DNA of 64,000 nucleotides from a virus: IMG/VR virus record IMGVR_UViG_3300034105_001195, positions 19,354-83,353 of that record; one strand, given 5' to 3'. A program made the translations under genes and the position numbers. Shown one piece after another: positions 154 through 19,969 of this stretch (its first letter is position 1; the number at the start of each line of letters is the position of its first letter). The notes under the pieces are model-generated. The model made no database searches, had not been told where the DNA came from, and was given only the letters and a program-made list of their open reading frames with translations.

Positions 154-621
154 TTATACCTCTTCTAAAGATAAAGATACATCCCAAAACTCTTGCGGGA
201 CTGAGGCTGTAGTAGATTTAACATTTCTTTTAGATACAGTAAAACTACATGATGTAAAGGAGGCTAGAATAATTTCATCTCTTGCAGAAACTGCATTATA
301 AGATATCTTAACCTTAAATGTTCCCTTACCTTTATTTAAATAGAATGCTCTTATATCTTCTGCACCCATTCCACCGTCCACGGTCATGGTGCTATATGTA
401 GGGATATCTCCCCAAGAAGCAGATACTGTTTTTTTATCTGCAATCCATATTTTTCTCAATGAGCCATTTGACATTCTTTGAGTCTTTTCAATTCTGTCTA
501 CGTCTACCGACGCTGAGCCTCTATTATGCTCAGACAATTTTGTCCAAGTTGGGGTATTTGCGTCTGTGCCTGTGTCAAAATAAATTAATGATCCTACAGG
601 AAGTGTCATTGGATAGCTCAT
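154..621 (-). CDS. Putative distal tail (Dit-like) protein
   Basis: 155 aa immediately downstream of the TMP; RMSNGSLRK...W motif typical of minor tail proteins at this position. Confidence 0.6.
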   Translation of the reverse strand: MSYPMTLPVGSLIYFDTGTDANTPTWTKLSEHNRGSASVDVDRIEKTQRMSNGSLRKIWIADKKTVSASWGDIPTYSTMTVDGGMGAEDIRAFYLNKGKGTFKVKISYNAVSARDEIILASFTSCSFTVSKRNVKSTTASVPQEFWDVSLSLEEV

Positions 622-3600
622 GTTTTAATACTCACATTCATTGGGTTACCCTTCATTTTAGCATTTAACTTTGTATCTTGTCCAATGGCCTGCTTTGTCA
701 TTGATACCACTTGTCTTACAAATGCATCAGTATTCATACCTTCAGATGGGTATATGTTCTGTGTAAGATTAATTACGTTTCCGCCGCCTCTAGAATCGCT
801 CATTGGCTCAAACATTTTGGCTGCTTGACCTACATCATATCTTGGAGATGCAAATGGTAGCTTAGCCATATTAGGGATAACCATTCCTCCAAACGCCATT
901 TCTGGTCCACGGTCTCCAACAATTGTAGGAACCTTTGGATTAAGCTTCATGGTTCCATATCCAGCTTTTACTGCTTGAACATTAAGGCCTGCTGGTGAAC
1001 CATCACCTGTTACTTTCCATTTTTTACCATTCTTATCTAAGAACTCAACACCAATCCAGGTAGAGCTTGGCCTTCCATTTTTAGTATTTGTTGTTTGTGT
1101 TGCACCTGCTGCGATTAAGGTAGATGGATGAACAATTGTAGCTCCTGCATAGGCTCCAGCAGTTGCTCCCAGAGTTGTAGGAACAGAACTAATCTTAGCG
1201 GTAGCCTTTGACGGACTCATGTCCATTTTCTTGCCATTAATATTAATGTCTCCTGTCATTGCGTCGACAGTAATTCCCTTTGAGGCTAAGCCTTTTGTAA
1301 TAGCGCCTTCTACTCCGCCCATAAAACCTGCAGCCTGGTCTGTCACGCTTGGATTATTTACCCTAGGAGATCTCTTTAATTGCAACTTAGGCGTGACAAT
1401 TGTTTCTGGTCTTGCTGTGTTTACGGTTCCAACTACACCTGCTGAAGCGGCTTGGCCTTCAGGTGTTTTTGCATACTCCTCTAGAGTCATTCCTAAAGCA
1501 TAGGCATTAATTCTTAATGTAGTCATTGCTTGATTAACATCATTAATTTGTTGCGTCTGTGTTGCAATCTTTTTATTTAATGCACCTAAATTTTCTGCTG
1601 CAAGAGCTGCATTATCTGACATCTTTTCTTGTCCAGCGTTGATTGCTTTAATTTTAGCTTCAAGAGGAGCATTGGCCAATTTGTTTGCATCTTCAATTGC
1701 TTTCTTCTGTGAATTATATTGTAGGGTAGACTGAAGCCCTTCCATATCAAGGCTTGCCTGCTGAGCACCTGCTGTATTTCCAGTTGCAATTGCAGCATCG
1801 TATTCCGCCTGCTTTTTAGCAATCTCTCTGCCAAGGTCACCCTCTTGCTTTGCTGCATCAAGGGCTTTTAGCCTTGCATCTGCTAGCTTGTTGTTTGCAT
1901 CTATCTGACTTTGTAAACGCTTTAATTCGTTTTTAGTATCAATTTGTTTTTGAGCGCTTTGGCCTTTAGCCGCTTTCTCTAGAACATCTCTCTGATCTGT
2001 TAACTTTTTTAAAGCTTTATAATTTTCTTTTAGTAATCCTTCTTTGTTTGCTGAAGCAACCGATGCGGCAACTGAATCGGCAACCATAGACAAATTCCTT
2101 ACTGCTTCGGCGCCTAGTTGTGAAAGATCTCCAGTAAAGCCCTTTGCCCCAAGACTCATTTTTTCAAATAGGCTAACAACTGTATCCATAGGGTTAATAA
2201 TTTTTCTAAGTTCTGGATTTTGTTTAATCATTTCTGCTCTAGTTCCTGCAGTAAGTACGGCCTTAGAAGACTCTAGTTTATTTAACTTTTTAAGCATTGC
2301 TTCTTGTGCTTGATACTCAGTTAATACTTTTGTGTTTCCGCTCTTGTCTGCTTTTGCAGCCTTCTTGCTTTTTTCAATCTCATCTATAATTCCAGCCTGT
2401 ATAGCCATCAGACCAGTGTTGACTGCCTTTGCGCCTTCACGTCCATTATTTGCTGAAGCAGAAACATAATTGTTTATTGCAGATTCTGCTGCATCCTGGC
2501 CTGTTCTAATATTTTTAAATGCACGGTTGCCTACAGTAAATGCTCCAGCCTTTTCTGCCTGATCAGAAAGCTTAAACATTGCAAATATTTTTTTGCTTGC
2601 TTCATCCGCTGACATTCCAGCGGCCATCAATGCGGTCTTAATATCGATTGCTACCTGCGGAAGCTCTGATTCCTTAGATTGATTAATTAATTTAATTTGA
2701 TCGGTATAGGTTTCCTTAACTTCTTTCTTAAGCTTTTTATACTCTTCAATTGTCATAGAAATAGGAAGCCCCGCATCTTGCATGCTTTCAAAAAGCATTT
2801 GGTTTCTTTCTCGTATGGCTTCTATATTTTTAACTGTATCAGCAAGCTTAGAGTTATAATCAGTAAACTTAAGTCCTGCCTTTTGAGCAGCTTCTGCTGT
2901 AAGGCCATAGCGTGTTGCTCCAATTCTTAAATGCTCGTTATGGTCTCTCATTCTCTTAATGCCCAAAGCAATAGTTGTAGAAAGTCCTGCAACTACAAGA
3001 TTTGCCCTAGTTGCCATTAATGCTACTCTTCCAAGCATTGGTGCAAGTTTAGAACCGCTAGCTGCTAGCTTGTCCGCTTGTAATGCTGCTTTACCCGCAC
3101 CTGGAAGTGATTGTGCTAATGTATTTCCAAGTCCGCCCATTCTTGATGTGACTGGTCCAGTCTTTCTGTCAGAAACTGCACCTGAATATGTAAATCCTTC
3201 TGGCCTTTGCTTCCCGCCGCCGCCCATCATCATAAATGGAATAATTCCACCTAAAGTAGATAGTGCTGTCCCCCCCATTCCTCCAATTTTGCCACCCAAC
3301 ATTTGTGCAGCAAAAGCTGCAATTAGAGGCCCTATCATTCCGCCTATGTTATATCCTTGAGCCATTGTCGATCTATTTGGAATAATACCTCCAGCGTTTC
3401 TAGGAACAAAAACTTCTGGGCCTTTTTCTCCCACAACGTATGGCTGTCCAGCATTAACTGGTCCGCCCATTTCTCTTTTTTCTAAACCAAATATAACTTG
3501 CTTTAAAGAGTCTGTAAGTGGTGTATCTTTTTTAGATTCCCAATTTAAGAATTTCTTTCTTAGTATGTCTTTATCAATTGGTGATAATTGAGACAGAACA

Positions 3601-6600
3601 GCTCTATCTCCTATAAGATCCGAAGCAGCAGATCTTATAACTGAATCTAACACGTCTGGCTCAAGAGCATTCTTTAAAGACCCCTGTGCATCTTTAACAT
3701 AACCGTAAGGTTTTTCTTTTGCAAGAGCTGCAGCAAACTTATCATAGAATAACTTTTGAGTATTCTTTCTTAATCCCGTGCTAGCAAATAATGTTTCAGC
3801 CATCTTAATAGATAGAGAGTTTACACCCCATGGAGCAGACTCGTACATGCTAGGCTTAGGTGCACCTGTTGGTCCAAATCCTGCGCCAATTCTGTGCATT
3901 GCTTTACCCTTAAGTACATTTCCAATCATTCCGCCGATATTAAATCCATTTTCTGGAGTCTTAAATGCGTTATCCGATAGACTTACGGAGTGACCCTTTT
4001 GTCTGCGCTTTAATTCATCTGCTGCAATCATTTTAGCAATAGCCGCTGGAGTCATTGTTTTTTCTGGAGACATCTTTAATGATGAATGAACTCCGTGCAA
4101 ATCTCCATATGTTTGTCTTCTTGCGTCAGAGAGTCTTTGAATCATTGCATTATAAACAACCTTCTCTTCTGAGTTTAAATCGAATCTACTTATTGTTTGT
4201 TTTAGCTTAGGCAAAGCCTCATTAATCTCTTGAAGCATACGATCATTGTATTGATCTGCTGTCATTCCCTTTGGAATACTTGCAGTTGACTCAGCAAAGA
4301 ATTTCTTTGTGTTGCTTCCCTTTACCCCTAGCAAATTAACCATTGCTTGGTGCTTGAATGAAGGCATTGTTGCAGAATATTCTCTTGGGCCAGAGGCTGT
4401 TGCAAATACTCCAGCTGGTCCCACATCTGCAAGAATATTACCAGATAGATTTCCCCTACCTAGGTCTTTATCTCCACGCAATGCTGAAGCCACTAGTTGT
4501 CTAAAGTATTGATCAGATGTGAACTTGCCGTCTTGATTTGCTATAGCAGGATTGTACTTAGACTCTAGTGCTAGTATTCTTCTTGCACCCGTTGGGTCTG
4601 TTGGATCTTTCATTACAACAACTCTTTGATTAGGTGTTTGTAGGCCATGTACGTCACGAGCAATTTCAGTTGCCCTCAATTCAGCAAGTGCTGCTTTTTC
4701 ATCTAGTACTGGCTTAACAAAAACTTTATCTCCGCCTTTACTATAAACTCCACCAATTCCAGCTACTGGGAAACTTCTTCCAGATGTTGGCTCTAGCAAT
4801 CCATCATAATCGGTTACTGGAGTTTTGCTGAATCTAGAATCTTTGACTGCTTGATTTGCCTTTTCCATTGCAGCTTTTGCTGCTCTTTGAGCTTCTACCT
4901 GCTTAATAGTTCTAGGCATTCCAAGGAACATCGCTTTGCCGCCTCTGAATAATTTCTGTGCAAACTGCCCTGGAACCTGACCTCCCATATTAAGTCTTCT
5001 TCCTGGCTTCTTAGCTTTTAAAAAGTCCATGAATACTTTTGTTATTCCAAAGTTATGTTTTAATCTTAACGGAGCCTTGATAATTCTTTCTTCAGTTCCA
5101 GGTCCTGTGCCTAACCCTAAAACCTTTCCTATTGTATCAATAGCCTTTCGCTTTTCTGTTTCAGTTTGTGGCAATCTGTCTTCAAAAGGATTTTCGTGAT
5201 TTTTTGTTAAGTTTGCAAATGTACTTGTCCATAAATTTTGTTCTTTATTTCCCGCCATTGCTTGACCAAAATTACCAGTTGCGCTGTAGCCGTATTGTCC
5301 TGCTTTTTGAATGTGCTCTGTGGCATAAGCATGAATATTTGGCTCCCATCTTCTTGATTTTTCATTCCAAATTGATTTGCCAAATAGCTCCATCTGTAAT
5401 CTTTTAACTTCCCCAGCGTTTGCAAATCCCATCTTTGTCAATGTATTAATTAAAGACGGTGAAGGATGAATAGCATGATGCCTATTGCTAGCCTTTATAT
5501 TTATTCCAGAAGAAGTTTTAACTGGTGGCTTAAGCAGCCCTCCTCCTATTTTTTTATCTAATTCTCTAGTTTGTTTTTCTTTTATTTCTCGCATTCTTTC
5601 GTCATCAATTGTGTCTGTTTTAGGGTCGTAAGCATACTGTCTTGCTTCATCATATAGTCTTTTGGCTGTACGAACTGATTCAACTTCTGACATTCCTAAA
5701 CCATTAAGTATTGCTGCGTCATGCATTACGTGCCTGACTTGTGTGTCTTCTAAAAAGTTCTTTGGAATTGATAGTCTTGAAACGTATGCAGATGCTCCTC
5801 TTATATTATTTTCTGCTTGCCTTCTTATTCCACCGCCTTCATATCTTCCCATGCCAGAGGTGTTGCCTGGTCCGCCATTTAATGAATACATTAAAGGCAT
5901 ATTCTTTTGTGCAATACTTGCTGGAATAACTGCTTCTCCAGGAGTTAATACAACTGGAACCTGTCCGCCTGTTGCATATCTTGGGGTCCCACCTAGTAGG
6001 CTCTTTACGGTTGACATATTTTGTTCTGTAGATTTTTTATTAATTACGAATGCGCCTGGTTCTGCTGTTGTGTGGTATGTGTCTGTGTTGCCTGTACCAG
6101 GAACAATGCCACCCCGAGCAAACTTAGGCTTTGTTGTTTGAATATTATATCCTGCTCCTGAAGTTCTTACGCCCCCAAGTGCTCTTGCAATTCTATCAAC
6201 TAAGGTCTTTGTCGACCCCTTATGGAACATCTCTTTCATATTTGATTTACCACTTGCTGGATCAACCACTGGCTGAGATGTAAATGGAACTGTAGTTAGA
6301 TTTGCTGTTCGCCCCATTGCCGTTGCAGTTGCAGCGGTTGTTTCTGCAAGCATTGCTTCAACTGTTGCATTTAGTTGTATTACTTTTGCTCTTGCTTGAT
6401 CCACTGTTATCTTGCTTGCCTGAAGCTGCTTAACAATTGCTTCAGTTTCTAATGCAGCAAGTTGAGTAATTTCAGAAAATTGTGGTAGCAATGCCTGATA
6501 TGAATCTGCTAGGCCAGAGGTAATTGTGCCTGTTGCCATAACCTCAGCCTTTAATACTTTAATTTCTGCTTCTGATTGCATTGCAATTGCCGCTGTCATT

Positions 6601-8828
6601 GCATGCCACTTTGCTGCTTCTTGTGCAACAACACCTGTTGATATTCCATTTACAGATGTAACACCTGGAATCTTTGGAAGATCTTGATTCATATATGCTT
6701 GAGGGTTTTTACCAATTCTAACATTTACTGGAGACGCTCCTGGAACTGTTCCAAATATAGTTCCTGGCTGTTGTGTCTGAGCTGGAATCATATGAGACAT
6801 ATCTCTTGTGTATGCTTCGCCAACTAGTGGGTTATTCTTATCTACAAATCTTTGCCCGCTTGGACTTCCAGCTGCAATTACTCCGCCTGCAAGTGTTGAG
6901 ATTCCTGGCTGCACTGCAACCTTTGCAGAGTTAGCCTTTATCTCAAGAGTATCAAATGATGCGGCAAGAGTATTTATTGCATTTGTTAATACAATTGTTG
7001 CTTCTGTATCCGAGTAGAATGATGTAGCAAGACCTTTAGCTGCAGCATCTGCTGCCATAATTTCTGGAGTAAGTAATTTAAATCCTTGTCCGCCTTTTAC
7101 TAGCTGTCTTAGGTGAAATATTCCCTTGATGACATATCCAATAAAGTTGCCCATAACACCAGCCAACATAATAATTGGTCCAGATACTGCGGTTATTCCT
7201 CCTAGTACATTTAGGAATGTCTTTACTGGCTGTGGAAGCTTCTGGAAGAATTTAATAATTCCGTCTACTACTTCTAAAACCTTTGTACTAATTACTAAAA
7301 ATTGGTTTCCAACTGCTGCAAGATCTGCTTGAACTGAAGCAAGAGCTCTCTTAAATTTACCAGATGCTGACTCTGTCAACATACCTAATTCTCGGGCTGA
7401 AATATTTGCAAGATCCGTTGCGCTTGACTTCATCAAATCCATTACCTGAAGCGTCTGGGATCCTTCTTTTCCTAAGTTTGCAAATAGAGCGGACATTCTT
7501 GCATACTGGAATTTACCGAATAGCTGCTCAATTGCTCTTGATTTGCTTAGTGGGTCTAAGTTGTCTAGGGCTGATTGAAGATCCATAATTGTCGCAGTTA
7601 GGTTGCCTGCGTTAGATGTTACAATCTGATCAATATCTATTCCAAAGCCATTAAACATTTCTTTAGCAACCTTTGTTGGGTTGATAAGAGAAGCCATTGC
7701 TGACTTAATTGCGTTAGCACCTTCTGATGCGTTTACTCCGCCTTCTTTCATTGCAGTTAAATACAATGCTAAATCTTTTACGTCTCCACCAAGAGACTTT
7801 ACAACGGGACCTGCTTTAGGAATTGCTTCAACTAAATCTGCTAGGCTTGTTGAGGTTTGGTTTTCAACTGCGTTAAGGAAGTCAATAGACTGTGTAAGTT
7901 CTTCAGTGCTTGACTTAAATGCATTCTGAATAGCAAGAGTTGCCTTCATGGCCTCTTGTCTATCTACTTCTCCAAGGATTGCAAGTCTAGAAGTTTCTTT
8001 TGTTGCTTCAAGTAGTGCTTGTCCCTGTTGTCCAGTTGCAGCTAGATCTGCGGCAAGTCCGATTGTATCTTTATATGCAATACCGTATGCTCCCGCAATT
8101 TCTCTTGCTGTTTCTGAAACATCTTTTCTTACCTTTGCAAGCTCTACTGCAGATACTGAAGATAGGCCACCGTAAACCTTTTGCAGTCTGACTAACTCTT
8201 GATCAGCTTCTCTAAAAGCTTTTTGTGCAGCCATACCAAATGCTGCTAGTGGTACGGTTAATCCTACTGTTAACTGACGACCTGCCCACTGAGTATTCTT
8301 ACCCCAGTTAATAAGACTTGTTGCTCCATCATTCATCACCTTGTTCATGATGGCAAGTTCTTGTCTTGCTATTGCTGTCTTATTCTTTACTTCATCTAGA
8401 CCCTTTGCAACCATTACGTTATATTGCATTAAGCCCTGTGCGTTTTTACCTACAGGTTGAATAATTGCTTGCTCAAGCATTACCTGCTGTTTTGCAAGGT
8501 CTCTAACTAGATTGCTAGTCCTCTTTGTATGCCCGCTCCATGTGTTGTAGTAGTCATTTAGCTTTAGTCTGCCTCTGTCTAAATTTTTGCCAAACTTTTC
8601 TACATCTGAAGTGAGGGATACGAAGTGTTGCGAGAACTGGCCTGTTGATGTAAGCGTTGTTGCAAACGCCTTATTCATTACTGCAATTTGATTTGCAAGT
8701 TTAGCGTTAGTTCCCGCTGTAACTTCTTGTAACTTTAAGAGTTGGGCAGTAGTCGCAGCCAGTTGGGTTCTTAAGCCCGTAAAGTCTGCGTTGGCGGTAA
8801 TATTGGTGGTGATTAAATTATCTGCCAT
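618..8828 (-). CDS. Tail tape measure protein with inserted cargo domains
   Basis: 2736 aa; Ala/Gly-rich helical N-half with a TP901-type TMP core (LTVGLTVPLAAFG...FLNAVENQTSTSLADLVEAIPKAGP); C-terminal VGEKGPE/VGDRGPE motifs; follows the tail chaperone. Confidence 0.93.
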   Translation of the reverse strand: MADNLITTNITANADFTGLRTQLAATTAQLLKLQEVTAGTNAKLANQIAVMNKAFATTLTSTGQFSQHFVSLTSDVEKFGKNLDRGRLKLNDYYNTWSGHTKRTSNLVRDLAKQQVMLEQAIIQPVGKNAQGLMQYNVMVAKGLDEVKNKTAIARQELAIMNKVMNDGATSLINWGKNTQWAGRQLTVGLTVPLAAFGMAAQKAFREADQELVRLQKVYGGLSSVSAVELAKVRKDVSETAREIAGAYGIAYKDTIGLAADLAATGQQGQALLEATKETSRLAILGEVDRQEAMKATLAIQNAFKSSTEELTQSIDFLNAVENQTSTSLADLVEAIPKAGPVVKSLGGDVKDLALYLTAMKEGGVNASEGANAIKSAMASLINPTKVAKEMFNGFGIDIDQIVTSNAGNLTATIMDLQSALDNLDPLSKSRAIEQLFGKFQYARMSALFANLGKEGSQTLQVMDLMKSSATDLANISARELGMLTESASGKFKRALASVQADLAAVGNQFLVISTKVLEVVDGIIKFFQKLPQPVKTFLNVLGGITAVSGPIIMLAGVMGNFIGYVIKGIFHLRQLVKGGQGFKLLTPEIMAADAAAKGLATSFYSDTEATIVLTNAINTLAASFDTLEIKANSAKVAVQPGISTLAGGVIAAGSPSGQRFVDKNNPLVGEAYTRDMSHMIPAQTQQPGTIFGTVPGASPVNVRIGKNPQAYMNQDLPKIPGVTSVNGISTGVVAQEAAKWHAMTAAIAMQSEAEIKVLKAEVMATGTITSGLADSYQALLPQFSEITQLAALETEAIVKQLQASKITVDQARAKVIQLNATVEAMLAETTAATATAMGRTANLTTVPFTSQPVVDPASGKSNMKEMFHKGSTKTLVDRIARALGGVRTSGAGYNIQTTKPKFARGGIVPGTGNTDTYHTTAEPGAFVINKKSTEQNMSTVKSLLGGTPRYATGGQVPVVLTPGEAVIPASIAQKNMPLMYSLNGGPGNTSGMGRYEGGGIRRQAENNIRGASAYVSRLSIPKNFLEDTQVRHVMHDAAILNGLGMSEVESVRTAKRLYDEARQYAYDPKTDTIDDERMREIKEKQTRELDKKIGGGLLKPPVKTSSGINIKASNRHHAIHPSPSLINTLTKMGFANAGEVKRLQMELFGKSIWNEKSRRWEPNIHAYATEHIQKAGQYGYSATGNFGQAMAGNKEQNLWTSTFANLTKNHENPFEDRLPQTETEKRKAIDTIGKVLGLGTGPGTEERIIKAPLRLKHNFGITKVFMDFLKAKKPGRRLNMGGQVPGQFAQKLFRGGKAMFLGMPRTIKQVEAQRAAKAAMEKANQAVKDSRFSKTPVTDYDGLLEPTSGRSFPVAGIGGVYSKGGDKVFVKPVLDEKAALAELRATEIARDVHGLQTPNQRVVVMKDPTDPTGARRILALESKYNPAIANQDGKFTSDQYFRQLVASALRGDKDLGRGNLSGNILADVGPAGVFATASGPREYSATMPSFKHQAMVNLLGVKGSNTKKFFAESTASIPKGMTADQYNDRMLQEINEALPKLKQTISRFDLNSEEKVVYNAMIQRLSDARRQTYGDLHGVHSSLKMSPEKTMTPAAIAKMIAADELKRRQKGHSVSLSDNAFKTPENGFNIGGMIGNVLKGKAMHRIGAGFGPTGAPKPSMYESAPWGVNSLSIKMAETLFASTGLRKNTQKLFYDKFAAALAKEKPYGYVKDAQGSLKNALEPDVLDSVIRSAASDLIGDRAVLSQLSPIDKDILRKKFLNWESKKDTPLTDSLKQVIFGLEKREMGGPVNAGQPYVVGEKGPEVFVPRNAGGIIPNRSTMAQGYNIGGMIGPLIAAFAAQMLGGKIGGMGGTALSTLGGIIPFMMMGGGGKQRPEGFTYSGAVSDRKTGPVTSRMGGLGNTLAQSLPGAGKAALQADKLAASGSKLAPMLGRVALMATRANLVVAGLSTTIALGIKRMRDHNEHLRIGATRYGLTAEAAQKAGLKFTDYNSKLADTVKNIEAIRERNQMLFESMQDAGLPISMTIEEYKKLKKEVKETYTDQIKLINQSKESELPQVAIDIKTALMAAGMSADEASKKIFAMFKLSDQAEKAGAFTVGNRAFKNIRTGQDAAESAINNYVSASANNGREGAKAVNTGLMAIQAGIIDEIEKSKKAAKADKSGNTKVLTEYQAQEAMLKKLNKLESSKAVLTAGTRAEMIKQNPELRKIINPMDTVVSLFEKMSLGAKGFTGDLSQLGAEAVRNLSMVADSVAASVASANKEGLLKENYKALKKLTDQRDVLEKAAKGQSAQKQIDTKNELKRLQSQIDANNKLADARLKALDAAKQEGDLGREIAKKQAEYDAAIATGNTAGAQQASLDMEGLQSTLQYNSQKKAIEDANKLANAPLEAKIKAINAGQEKMSDNAALAAENLGALNKKIATQTQQINDVNQAMTTLRINAYALGMTLEEYAKTPEGQAASAGVVGTVNTARPETIVTPKLQLKRSPRVNNPSVTDQAAGFMGGVEGAITKGLASKGITVDAMTGDININGKKMDMSPSKATAKISSVPTTLGATAGAYAGATIVHPSTLIAAGATQTTNTKNGRPSSTWIGVEFLDKNGKKWKVTGDGSPAGLNVQAVKAGYGTMKLNPKVPTIVGDRGPEMAFGGMVIPNMAKLPFASPRYDVGQAAKMFEPMSDSRGGGNVINLTQNIYPSEGMNTDAFVRQVVSMTKQAIGQDTKLNAKMKGNPMNVSIKT

Positions 8829-18163: not shown

Positions 18164-19969
18164 TTAAAGGCTAACTGACTCTGGCTCTACCACTGTTAGA
18201 AAGAACGGGGTGGAATCGTCACCAGAGGATGACTCTATTAGTGAAAATGAAGTGTCGTTAATCTGATTTACCGTATTTCCCGTATAAAGCAGGTAATGGT
18301 TTAGAATTCTATTTACAGATAGGGTGGTCTCATATACGGCTACGTTATTATACATATGCCCAATCCCAGACTTGGTGTCGTTCTGATTCTGATTAAATTT
18401 GATGCTTGTATCAGATGATGTTAGATTAATTACAATATGATGTGGTGTGTCTACTACTAGGAAGTTCCAGACATTTGTTTCCGCCGTCCTGTCTATGCCA
18501 TTTACATAAATTGAGGATATCCCTGTCTTTGTTATTAGCCCCGCATTATTCCACTCGTACTTTTTAGTAGCACCTGAGAATAGGACATTCTCATTATACT
18601 GAGGTGTGTATATAAGTTCTATGCAAGAAACGGCGGGAATAGAATTTAATGAGAATCCATGTCCATTATACATAGTCAGCCCATTGTACTTATTGTAAGA
18701 AAGGGTCTTGCTATTAAATTTTGGCAAAGCATAGTCATAGTCGGAAGATACATAGTATCCTGAATTATCGCTATAGAAGTTCTTGCCCGTATAGAAAGCT
18801 ATTTCTAGGGATCTGAGAATTGGAAGATACTTACTGGTATCTGCAGAGGATAAGGTTATCCTTAAATAAACAATCTCTGAGAACTGATCATCATTTTTAT
18901 TTATATATGGAAGAGGGCTTCCATTCTTGCAAGTCCGCCAAGCAATATTATCAATGCTTGCCTCTACTAGAATTCCAGTTACATCGTTGCTCCAGTGGAT
19001 TTGAGATGTATCGATATTCAAATAATTAGGCACAATGAAATAGTCTGTAAATGTAAATGATGCAGTTGCTGCAGTCTCTGTCTCTGGTATATAGATATAG
19101 GAATTGTCATCAGATATTGTAATGCCGCCCGTTGCTACTTCAGACCAAGGCTTGGATCCTGGATATGAATAAATAAACTTAGGTCTAAGTGACTCTGTGT
19201 TCATGCTGAAAAGATAGCCATTGTCTGCTGATACAATTTGAGATATGTTTACTTCTTGAGTTCCCTCATTATAATGAGCCAATACCTGGGTACCAGATAA
19301 AGCGTATCTATAGAATCCTACACAGTCTACTACAAATCTACCAGTAGACGGTCCTGATTGAAAGGTTGCTGTCTCATTGGAAAACTTGTATGAGTCTATT
19401 TGCAATGCATCAGCAATAAATCCGTTTATGTATAGGGATAATATATTGCTCTGGAATATACCTACAACATATACTACTTCAGAATTTGATACTGTGGCTT
19501 GAACCTGGTTGGCTCCAACTCTAAATATAATATTGCCGTTCTGATAAAATATGCCCGTATTTGTTGCGGTGTCTCCAACTATTGTTGTGCTTACGTTATA
19601 TCCTGGAAGTGCACACCAAGCCTCTATGGAGAAAGAGTTATCCTTGTAATACTTTGTAGCAATTCCTTTTGGGTTGTATGCAATAATGGTTGAACTTAAA
19701 ACCTCAGTTCCTCTTACCGATCCCGTAACTAAAGGCATAATCTGTTTTGAGGAAGCGGAAGAAGCAGTACCGTTATTTAGACTACCTGAGTAATCGTAAA
19801 TCTGAATTCCGCTTATTTCTCCATAGTTAAGGCCACTATCTTTTAAAGCTTGATATGTTGCATATTGAGACATCAGTTCGGTATACGTGTTAGTTGTACC
19901 CGATTGAACCTCATCTAGTAAATAAAATGAGTTTGGAAAGTCGTTTAAGACTCTACTTTTATATGACAT
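18164..19969 (-). CDS. Virion protein with a LamG/concanavalin-A-like domain
   Basis: 601 aa; FSIEAW...LSLYING...FYRYALSGTQVLAHY LamG pattern. Confidence 0.7.
   Translation of the reverse strand: MSYKSRVLNDFPNSFYLLDEVQSGTTNTYTELMSQYATYQALKDSGLNYGEISGIQIYDYSGSLNNGTASSASSKQIMPLVTGSVRGTEVLSSTIIAYNPKGIATKYYKDNSFSIEAWCALPGYNVSTTIVGDTATNTGIFYQNGNIIFRVGANQVQATVSNSEVVYVVGIFQSNILSLYINGFIADALQIDSYKFSNETATFQSGPSTGRFVVDCVGFYRYALSGTQVLAHYNEGTQEVNISQIVSADNGYLFSMNTESLRPKFIYSYPGSKPWSEVATGGITISDDNSYIYIPETETAATASFTFTDYFIVPNYLNIDTSQIHWSNDVTGILVEASIDNIAWRTCKNGSPLPYINKNDDQFSEIVYLRITLSSADTSKYLPILRSLEIAFYTGKNFYSDNSGYYVSSDYDYALPKFNSKTLSYNKYNGLTMYNGHGFSLNSIPAVSCIELIYTPQYNENVLFSGATKKYEWNNAGLITKTGISSIYVNGIDRTAETNVWNFLVVDTPHHIVINLTSSDTSIKFNQNQNDTKSGIGHMYNNVAVYETTLSVNRILNHYLLYTGNTVNQINDTSFSLIESSSGDDSTPFFLTVVEPESVSL

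Follow-up and report, generated by a model that had tools for sequence, protein, structure and literature searches.

The locus studied here raises the question of whether a phage tape measure protein (TMP) can carry a kinase inside it and, if so, in which cell that kinase would work. It lies in a stretch of 64,000 nucleotides (the window, meaning the whole stretch analysed), which comprises bases 19354-83353 of the IMG/VR record IMGVR_UViG_3300034105_001195, a record of 83,353 b with an estimated completeness of 68%. The largest open reading frame (ORF) of the window encodes a TMP of 2736 residues, and an earlier prediction, made from the letters alone, had placed in it a HipA/CtkA/PI3K-like kinase domain at 3945-4935, delivered with the virion for host takeover or anti-defence. 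The results presented below indicate that TMP residues ~1308-1612 almost certainly adopt a protein-kinase-like (PKL) fold, judging from the predicted structure, and that the residues picked as catalytic are among the few that never vary among relatives.

618..8828, minus strand: TMP gene, 2736 residues, the largest ORF of the window, taken from the ORF list and its translation

Motifs and predicted fold of the domain

All kinase-type motif strings quoted in the original prediction are present in the TMP, between residues 1357 and 1470. The stretch given for them was one base out of frame; in frame it becomes 3945-4937 (minus strand), or TMP residues 1298-1628. GIGGVY is found at residues 1357-1362 and VFVKP at 1369-1373, the latter holding Lys1372. 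They are followed by ALAELRATEIARDVHGLQTP at residues 1380-1399 (holding Glu1383), ASALRGDKDLGRGN at 1447-1460 (holding Asp1453, Asp1455 and Asn1460, with D1455 and N1460 at D-x4-N spacing), and ILADVG at 1465-1470 (holding Asp1468). The features of the domain are the following.

3993..4907, minus strand: predicted protein-kinase-like domain, residues 1308-1612; AlphaFold2 mean predicted local distance difference test (pLDDT) 92, structural matches covering model residues 16-289
4743..4781, minus strand: Gly-rich loop G1350-R-S1352-F-P-V-A-G-I-G-G1360-V-Y1362; loop and strand ahead of the Lys strand in the model
4713..4715, minus strand: Lys1372, candidate ATP-binding Lys; 100% conserved, in predicted strand 68-75
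4680..4682, minus strand: Glu1383, candidate C-helix Glu; 100% conserved, in predicted helix 78-95
4449..4478, minus strand: catalytic-loop motif R1451-G-D1453-K-D1455-L-G-R-G-N1460; directly after predicted helix 139-152
4419..4427, minus strand: Asp1468-Val-Gly1470, candidate Mg-binding (DFG-like) motif; after a short predicted hairpin past N1460

The six-frame translation of the window contains the ordered composite of these motifs (G.G[GS], K, E, D....N and D[FVLIM]G) a single time, namely at the kinase site. Given that shuffling the TMP 2000 times produced the full ordered pattern 9 times, and its catalytic part alone 171 times, the motif by itself is modest, suggestive evidence. The evidential weight is carried by conservation and fold.

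The fold was predicted with AlphaFold2 from an alignment of 42 rows (the window, six related viral loci and 35 parts of relatives), which yielded a mean pLDDT of 92 and a predicted TM-score (pTM) of 0.87, with the five models ranging from 89.6 to 92.0. The predicted elements come in the order of a protein kinase: after an N-terminal helix and three strands there is a long helix, then two more strands, a short helix and a helix that ends at R1451, and a loop, a hairpin of two tiny strands and a helical lobe complete the model. The strands lie at model residues 44-48, 61-65, 68-75, 102-108 and 118-125 and the long helix at 78-95, with the C-terminal helices behind them; seven of these follow the DVG motif, at residues 192-313, with a pLDDT of about 90. 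K1372 is placed in the third strand, E1383 in the long helix, D1453, D1455 and N1460 in the loop after the helix, and D1468 after the hairpin. The domain is thereby laid out as an N-terminal helix, an N-lobe sheet, a C helix, catalytic and Mg loops, and a helical C-lobe. Fold and motif features of the PKL superfamily are found in the model, namely a bilobal fold, a third-strand Lys with a C-helix Glu, a D-x4-N motif after helix E, and a DFG-like Asp.

The structure prediction had been set as the refutation test of the original prediction, and the structural searches agree with a kinase-like outcome. A Foldseek search against the PDB returned four matches with E <= 0.001, all of them CtkA (best E 3e-4, prob 0.99), followed by HipA, PI4KIIalpha, LepB and many classical kinases. 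When the model was compared with 48,161 representative chains using VIA-align, the top chain was CotH (5jda), with a Z of 11.8 over 217 aligned residues and a root mean square deviation (rmsd) of 4.0, and further Z values were 9.8 for CtkA, 9.8/9.4 for PI4KIIalpha, 9.2 for MavQ, 9.0 for HipA and 8.9 for Fam20C. Sixteen chains reached Z >= 8, and the best 50 rows are all kinases or kinase-fold proteins, counting 8k20_B (Bud32), 5dzt_A (CylM) and 5y81_B (Tra1), which we take to have this fold. Re-scoring the top 1000 Foldseek chains gave 11.8 for CotH, 10.9 for CtkA, 10.0 for MavQ, 9.8 for PI4KIIalpha, 9.2 for LepB, 9.1 for PI3Kdelta, 8.9 for HipT, 8.8 for HipA and ~9 for PI3K/Vps34. CtkA, HipA and the PI3/4-kinases are thus among the nearest solved structures, as had been proposed, although CotH scores highest. 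When the neighbouring domain (residues 985-1300) was searched in the same way as a control, no chain had Z >= 5, the highest value being 4.6, and Foldseek reached E 0.57 at best; hence, the kinase signal is specific to the stretch in question.

Predicted structures were also searched. In the ESM Atlas, unnamed clusters come first, and the only named neighbours carry LepB_N. In BFVD, a collection of predicted viral structures, nine matches have E <= 0.001, the nearest of which are large virion-type phage proteins; the matches also include head-morphogenesis fusions and proteins annotated as PI3K/PI4K from uncultured and haloarchaeal tailed viruses. As far as models can tell, virion proteins may carry kinase-fold cargo more often than their annotation indicates.

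Individual BFVD matches with E between 1e-5 and 4e-4, all with prob 1.00, are a 1340-residue protein of Mycobacterium phage Onyinye, annotated as an ADP-ribosyltransferase, an HK97 portal protein of 1201 residues, and an uncharacterised protein of 1100 residues from Haloarcula hispanica tailed virus 1. A weaker match is a 774-residue protein of Gordonia phage Sixama (E 4.4e-3).

Conservation, carrier and distribution

Conservation was assessed by aligning the matching parts of 243 relatives with the query, which gave 128 rows (the query and 127 representatives) with identity down to 27%. Gly1350, Ser1352, Gly1360, Lys1372, Glu1383, Pro1399, Gln1444, Asn1460 and Asp1468 are present in 100% of the rows, Asp1455 in 99%, the Leu of the catalytic loop in 98%, and Asp1453, R1451, Gly1470 and Y1362 in 97% each. 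The original prediction had also taken the Gly that stands at the catalytic-loop position usually held by His as a sign that the domain may be divergent or inactive. The Gly does not argue for inactivity: in the family rows listed, the pair of residues behind D-L differs between members (DLGRGN, DLSPDN, DLQADN), with Asp1455 and Asn1460 fixed. Classical protein kinases (D-L-K-P-E-N) also have no His at this position.

Identity along the whole TMP was computed with 217 full-length relatives. The kinase segment is conserved as strongly as the N-terminal TMP core, with identities of 0.89-0.93 in 55 close relatives, 0.75-0.79 in 65 mid relatives and 0.39-0.53 in 97 far relatives. Identity falls to 0.22-0.46 at residues 1001-1300 and to 0.35-0.51 at residues 1801-2000 and 2401-2600 when close and mid relatives are considered. 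At the level of the aligned sequences, these values show the kinase segment to be under purifying selection.

That the carrier is a TMP, as had been proposed, is borne out by its PhageMin_Tail core and by ten PHROG tape-measure families that cover residues ~13-850. The position in the tail module and the hydrophobic segments of the protein are likewise those of a TP901-type (PF10145) TMP; the gene lies downstream of portal, prohead protease, major capsid-type, adaptor and Ig-domain tube-like genes.

7515..8114, minus strand: PhageMin_Tail (PF10145) core, TMP residues 239-438; Pfam E 5e-28

A phmmer search with the 351-residue stretch against 1.84 billion cluster representatives (50% clustering) found 162 relatives, 156 of which have E <= 1e-10, and a word-indexed search found at least 812, in proteins of 1504-4788 residues. 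The conserved core corresponds to query residues ~8-305 in the 150 representatives listed. Among these, the kinase starts past residue 650 in 115, and 111 of those 115 also match the N-terminal core of the TMP; the remaining 35 are mostly N-terminally truncated. The median start is residue 772, right after the TMP core, and a median of ~1860 residues follow, with the present phage having ~600 additional residues between core and kinase. Source annotations of the relatives read 'TP901 family phage tail tape measure protein' or 'hypothetical' only.

No standalone form was found among proteins of 145-616 residues: single-sequence and profile searches returned 20 and 14 proteins in this range, all of them partial and covering at most 87-90% of the query, and 17 of the 20 lie on contigs shorter than 3 kb. 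A purine-rich stretch precedes Met1281, ahead of the kinase, and was not counted as evidence of an internal translation start. None of 50,697 GenBank phage records matches the domain by blastn or tblastn. As far as the searched sequences go, the family is shown to be restricted to giant TMPs of uncultured phages and obligatorily fused to them. Given that no profile recognises the domain, that it has no standalone form, and that it occurs only in giant TMPs, it represents an unannotated kinase-like family in a new carrier.

As for the host, an alignment scan found two related loci on contigs labelled as metagenome-assembled genomes (MAGs), of Bifidobacterium sp. and Acidimicrobiaceae, and a scan of genome contigs with the single protein gave no match. 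None of 400 further genomes sampled from the phylum of the MAG carries the domain. The contigs labelled Acidimicrobiaceae are more likely binned phage contigs than prophages, and the 85-kb MAG contig may be a binned phage. The record contains a GP88 family protein and no WhiB gene. Together, the GP88 protein, the relatives of a structural gene in Streptomyces phages and the MAG labels give a hint of an actinobacterial host.

The structural gene referred to encodes a Laminin_G_3 protein of 601 residues (window 18164-19969, minus strand); among isolated phages, only Streptomyces phages of ~130 kb encode relatives of it, hypothetical proteins that share 23-25% identity with it (34 records). The MAG labelled Acidimicrobiaceae has two contigs with a kinase-bearing giant frame each, of 2917 and 2913 residues (C65 and C43, respectively).

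Proposed delivery into the host weighed against other roles

The reading we prefer is that an active kinase borne by the TMP is delivered with it and acts in the host before phage gene expression, a chain whose chances, taken as a whole, we consider about even. Since the domain is part of the TMP, it would ride in the tail and pass into the host envelope and cell as infection begins; the TMP is believed to be the first component out of the tail and to form a conduit through the cell wall and envelope (PMC7824862). The kinase would then phosphorylate host targets ahead of phage expression, for example as a pre-loaded means of takeover or counter-defence. A topology facing the cytoplasm may be possible, given this proposed conduit and the position of the kinase between two hydrophobic clusters.

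7116..7322, minus strand: hydrophobic cluster 1 of the TMP, residues 503-571; Kyte-Doolittle, window 19, score >= 1.4
3204..3347, minus strand: hydrophobic Gly-rich cluster 2 of the TMP, residues ~1828-1875; score 1.46 at residues 1828-1846, Gly-rich by sequence

The links of this chain differ in strength. From the predicted fold, the domain is probably an active ATP-dependent phosphotransferase. A protein substrate is somewhat favoured over a lipid one, and action in the infected cell after ejection is a matter on which the balance lies level.

Several points weigh against an active, delivered kinase. The phage is uncultured, and every reading, kinase activity included, is predicted from sequence. 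The domain has no Pfam and no PHROG match, and phmmer and profile hmmsearch against the PDB returned no kinase, only repeat-summed WD40 noise over 20 residues. Pfam applied to the 42 alignment members gave 29 scattered weak families, with HipA_2 in one of the 42 (E 0.016). Profile comparison with hhalign yielded a probability of 0.3% against Escherichia coli HipA and of 0.2-0.9% against a profile of 27 CotH domains from actinobacterial genomes. Within the motif, the gap between N1460 and D1468 is only 7 residues, which is short, classical kinases having ~12 residues between the corresponding N and D, and the placement of K, E, D, N and D in an active site rests on their order, spacing and predicted secondary structure rather than on a three-dimensional superposition. 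Coverage of the kinase is inflated because the 217 full-length relatives were gathered by kinase similarity, which leaves unaffected the comparison of its identity with that of the N-terminal core in the aligned parts. The delivery itself also raises difficulties. TMPs are extended helices in a tube lumen of ~4 nm, where a folded 30-kDa domain hardly fits, so storage in the tail in unfolded form and refolding after ejection must be assumed; and since a kinase needs ATP, access to the cytoplasm is required. Finally, the top structural match, CotH, is an assembly kinase, which suits a role in the producer cell, and lipid kinases score structurally as well as protein kinases.

The proposed HipA/CtkA/PI3K-like identity therefore has to be divided: likeness to these kinases stands as a likeness of predicted fold, and membership of their families by sequence does not. 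CotH (Bacillus cereus, PDB 5jda/5jd9; PF08757) shares an atypical kinase fold with the TMP domain (Z 11.8, 216-217 residues aligned, rmsd 3.9-4.0), but identity in the structural alignment is 9-11%, the CotH hidden Markov model (HMM) has 0 matches in the phage record while matching control genomes, and hhalign reaches at most 0.9%. The best hhalign path, itself non-significant, aligns helix E and D1455-x4-N1460 with the D-x4-N that is conserved in CotH, in the expected register. CotH is a free enzyme of sporulating cells, whereas the TMP domain is a module of a virion protein.

HipA, HipT and CtkA (PDB 3akk, 3tpb, 4pu3, 7wcf, 8ezr) resemble the domain with Z values of 8.8-10.9 and provide the top Foldseek matches. 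A Gly-rich loop with an adjoining conserved Ser, a D-x4-N motif and an Mg-binding Asp are given as the defining motifs of Hip kinases in bioRxiv 10.1101/2021.04.14.439929. The domain has candidate counterparts of these motifs, including the invariant Ser1352, but such motifs are common to the fold. Unlike Hip kinases, it has no HipA N-subdomain and no catalytic-loop His, it is matched by neither HipA_C nor HipA_2 (with the HipA_2 HMM, a cut-off as loose as E <= 10 still gave no match in the phage record), and no antitoxin or DNA-binding partner gene stands beside it, the domain being internal to the TMP gene among tail genes.

PI4KIIalpha, PI3K/Vps34 and the Legionella proteins MavQ and LepB match the domain with Z values of 9-10 over ~200-220 residues; both Legionella proteins are kinases that a secretion machine delivers into another cell. 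Unlike phosphoinositide kinases, the TMP domain has the loop D-K-D-L-x3-N (within G-D-K-D-L-G-R-G-N) rather than D-R-H-x2-N, and PI3_PI4_kinase (PF00454) matches neither the domain nor appears among the top families of the 42 members. Membership of the HipA, PI3K/PI4K or CotH families by sequence was accordingly ruled out from the profile and hhalign results.

Enzymes are known in other TMPs, where peptidoglycan hydrolase, Rpf and peptidase motifs (TM4, T5 pb2 and others) form catalytic modules carried to the envelope. These known enzymatic domains act on peptidoglycan or the cell wall, outside the cytoplasm and with no need of ATP. A kinase in a TMP would differ in needing ATP and thus access to the cytoplasm.

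The T7 protein kinase (gp0.7) is expressed from an early gene once the DNA has entered and does not form part of the virion. It offers the precedent of a phage kinase that phosphorylates host proteins and broadly disarms defence systems (PMC13645617). The TMP domain has no likeness to it by sequence, tblastn against the 50,697 phage records giving no match.

Polyvalent proteins (Iyer et al. 2017, PMC5512222) resemble the TMP kinase in that a kinase is part of a large multidomain protein, predicted in 2017 to be injected together with the DNA and to act early. The BFVD neighbours of the TMP domain include giant phage proteins of the portal, MuF and ADP-ribosyltransferase types, as in this concept. 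As described in PMC5512222, the polyvalent-protein kinases come from phages and prophages of Verrucomicrobia-Chlamydia and Bacteroidetes and have lost the whole C-terminal subdomain, whereas the TMP kinase keeps a helical C-lobe, with seven helices past DVG, and its carrier is a TMP. The term 'tape measure' occurs 0 times in the main text of PMC5512222.

Of the alternatives to delivery, the one that survives best, though we consider it unlikely, is that the kinase works in the producer cell and serves assembly by phosphorylating the TMP itself or the tube, chaperones or fibres while the tail is built, much as CotH patterns a large protein assembly through phosphorylation of the spore coat. CotH is the best structural match (Z 11.8), and it polyphosphorylates structural proteins of the spore coat (PMC7821199). 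The cytoplasm of the producer would supply ATP, removing the problems of both ATP and refolding. The Ser1352 beside the Gly-rich loop is invariant, and Hip kinases autophosphorylate the Ser adjoining this loop (bioRxiv 10.1101/2021.04.14.439929). The fold neighbours differ by only ~1-2 Z, however, so that CotH is not clearly nearer than the effector or toxin kinases CtkA, MavQ, LepB and HipA, and the hhalign comparison with CotH is non-significant; moreover, an assembly role would need no fusion to the TMP, yet no standalone form was found.

Distinctly unlikely, in our view, is a kinase for lipids or small molecules, anchored to the membrane through the hydrophobic segments of the TMP, which would modify a host membrane lipid, for example phosphatidylinositol in an actinobacterial host, and aid channel formation or DNA entry. 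The position of the kinase between the hydrophobic clusters at residues 503-571 and 1828-1875 would suit such a role, as would the scores of MavQ (Z 10.0), PI4KIIalpha (9.8), LepB (9.2) and PI3K/Vps34 (~9), the LepB_N of the named ESM Atlas neighbours and the PI3K/PI4K annotation of some BFVD neighbours. Likeness of fold cannot separate lipid from protein kinases, given that CotH, CtkA, HipA and Fam20C score the same or higher, and neither the PI3K/PI4K Pfam family nor the D-R-H loop is found, the loop being D-K-D-L. The weak hints of an Actinomycetota host (the two MAG contigs, GP88 and the Laminin_G_3 relatives in Streptomyces phages), which would also favour it, are countered by the 0 of 400 genomes of the phylum, by the lack of WhiB in the record and by MAG contigs that are perhaps binned phage.

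A kinase fold that performs no phosphotransfer is very unlikely. Such a domain would be a nucleotide-binding switch, sensing ATP for channel opening or TMP refolding, or would catalyse AMPylation or glutamylation; SelO and SidJ are kinase-fold enzymes with these other chemistries. The position two residues after the catalytic Asp varies and holds no Lys or His, the N-to-D spacing is unusually short, and the family is isolated in sequence space. Against this, pseudokinases usually lose at least one of K, D, N and D, all of which stay fixed here in the 128 diverged rows; that the best 50 structural rows contain no SelO- or SidJ-like chain counts in the same direction as weak evidence.

Chance resemblance of motifs in a region that is a mere spacer of a long tape measure can hardly be right, since the loose catalytic pattern in 171 of 2000 shuffles and the failure of every profile to recognise a kinase are set against invariant catalytic residues, a full pattern in 9 of 2000 shuffles, and a high-confidence bilobal fold with 50 of the best 50 rows kinase-fold and none at Z >= 5 for the neighbouring domain; conservation, the AlphaFold2 model and the structural searches contradict it.

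Adjoining modules and meaning for phage biology

The domain directly upstream of the kinase is predicted to be folded and behaves as a cassette, and a conserved Gly-rich junction separates the two.

4929..5876, minus strand: cassette-like variable domain, residues 985-1300; directly upstream of the kinase, predicted folded, fold not recognised
4932..4991, minus strand: conserved Gly-rich junction N-M-GGQVPGQFAQKLFRGGKA, residues 1280-1299; between cassette and kinase
3375..3470, minus strand: internal copy of a TMP C-terminal-type motif (GGPVNAGQPYVVGEKGPEVFVPRNAGGIIPN), residues 1787-1818; PHROG 30701 and the C-terminal part of PHROG 1538 match residues 1770-1825

Of 34 related loci, 7 have the cassette at 77-87% identity and 10 have it at 36-40%, whereas the other 17 have unrelated sequence in its place past its first ~90-190 residues. 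AlphaFold2 predicts a folded alpha/beta domain (pLDDT 76, pTM 0.75), for which no fold match was found in the PDB (best Z 4.6, best Foldseek E 0.57). R1032, H1036-D1037, H1172, N1186 and D1217 are invariant, and E1171 and G1185 are conserved in at least 90%. The cassette may be a second swappable enzyme or a targeting module.

In the junction, N296, G298, G299, F305, A306, Q307, L309, F310, G312 and G313 (alignment numbering) are invariant columns, and the string N-x-GGQ(V/I)PGQFAQKLF-GGG-KA is near-invariant even where the preceding cassette is 25-32% identical. Strings of the type GG-x-(V/I)-P and 'GYN-x-GGM' recur at TMP residues 906, 954, 1632, 1813, 1829, 1860 and 2647. By their sequence, these Gly-rich strings could be linkers, processing sites or recombination joints.

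Further along the TMP, a motif of the C-terminal type occurs twice, as VVGEKGPEVFVP..GGIIPN (residues 1787-1818; 3375-3470, minus strand) and as IVGDRGPEMAFGGMVIPN (residues 2638-2653; 870-917, minus strand), and the internal copy is followed by the hydrophobic Gly-rich segment. In its sequence, the protein looks like one TMP lengthened by a second TMP-like C-terminal half.

A fuller version of the delivery reading includes the cassette. The TMP would be the vehicle for a cytoplasm-acting kinase that is threaded unfolded, refolds in the host and acts within seconds of adsorption, ahead of any phage transcription, on proteins or a membrane lipid, and the adjoining hypervariable cassette would provide a further effector or targeting module that can be swapped. 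Such a kinase would be to the T7 kinase, which blunts defence systems, a counterpart that arrives pre-loaded. We put this forward tentatively, as a possibility that is rather more doubtful than probable. If it is true, it would be direct evidence that internal segments of a TMP reach the cytoplasm and work there.

Neither the fold class nor the notion that phages inject kinases is new in itself. What is new is a kinase-like family that Pfam, PHROGs and sequence searches of the PDB do not recognise, its TMP carrier with no free form, and its breadth in uncultured phages. In a search of the main texts of the openly accessible literature, no paper was found to describe a TMP with a kinase in it.

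The domain is a candidate effector acting before phage gene expression, which is timely given that phage kinases are shown to disarm many defences (PMC13645617), and the cassette beside it suggests a site of module exchange. Since at least 800 uncultured phages have a conserved kinase fold in their TMP, either some of this protein must enter the cytoplasm and act there, or phosphorylation must aid the building of the tail. Either of these would, if true, be new for the biology of siphophages.

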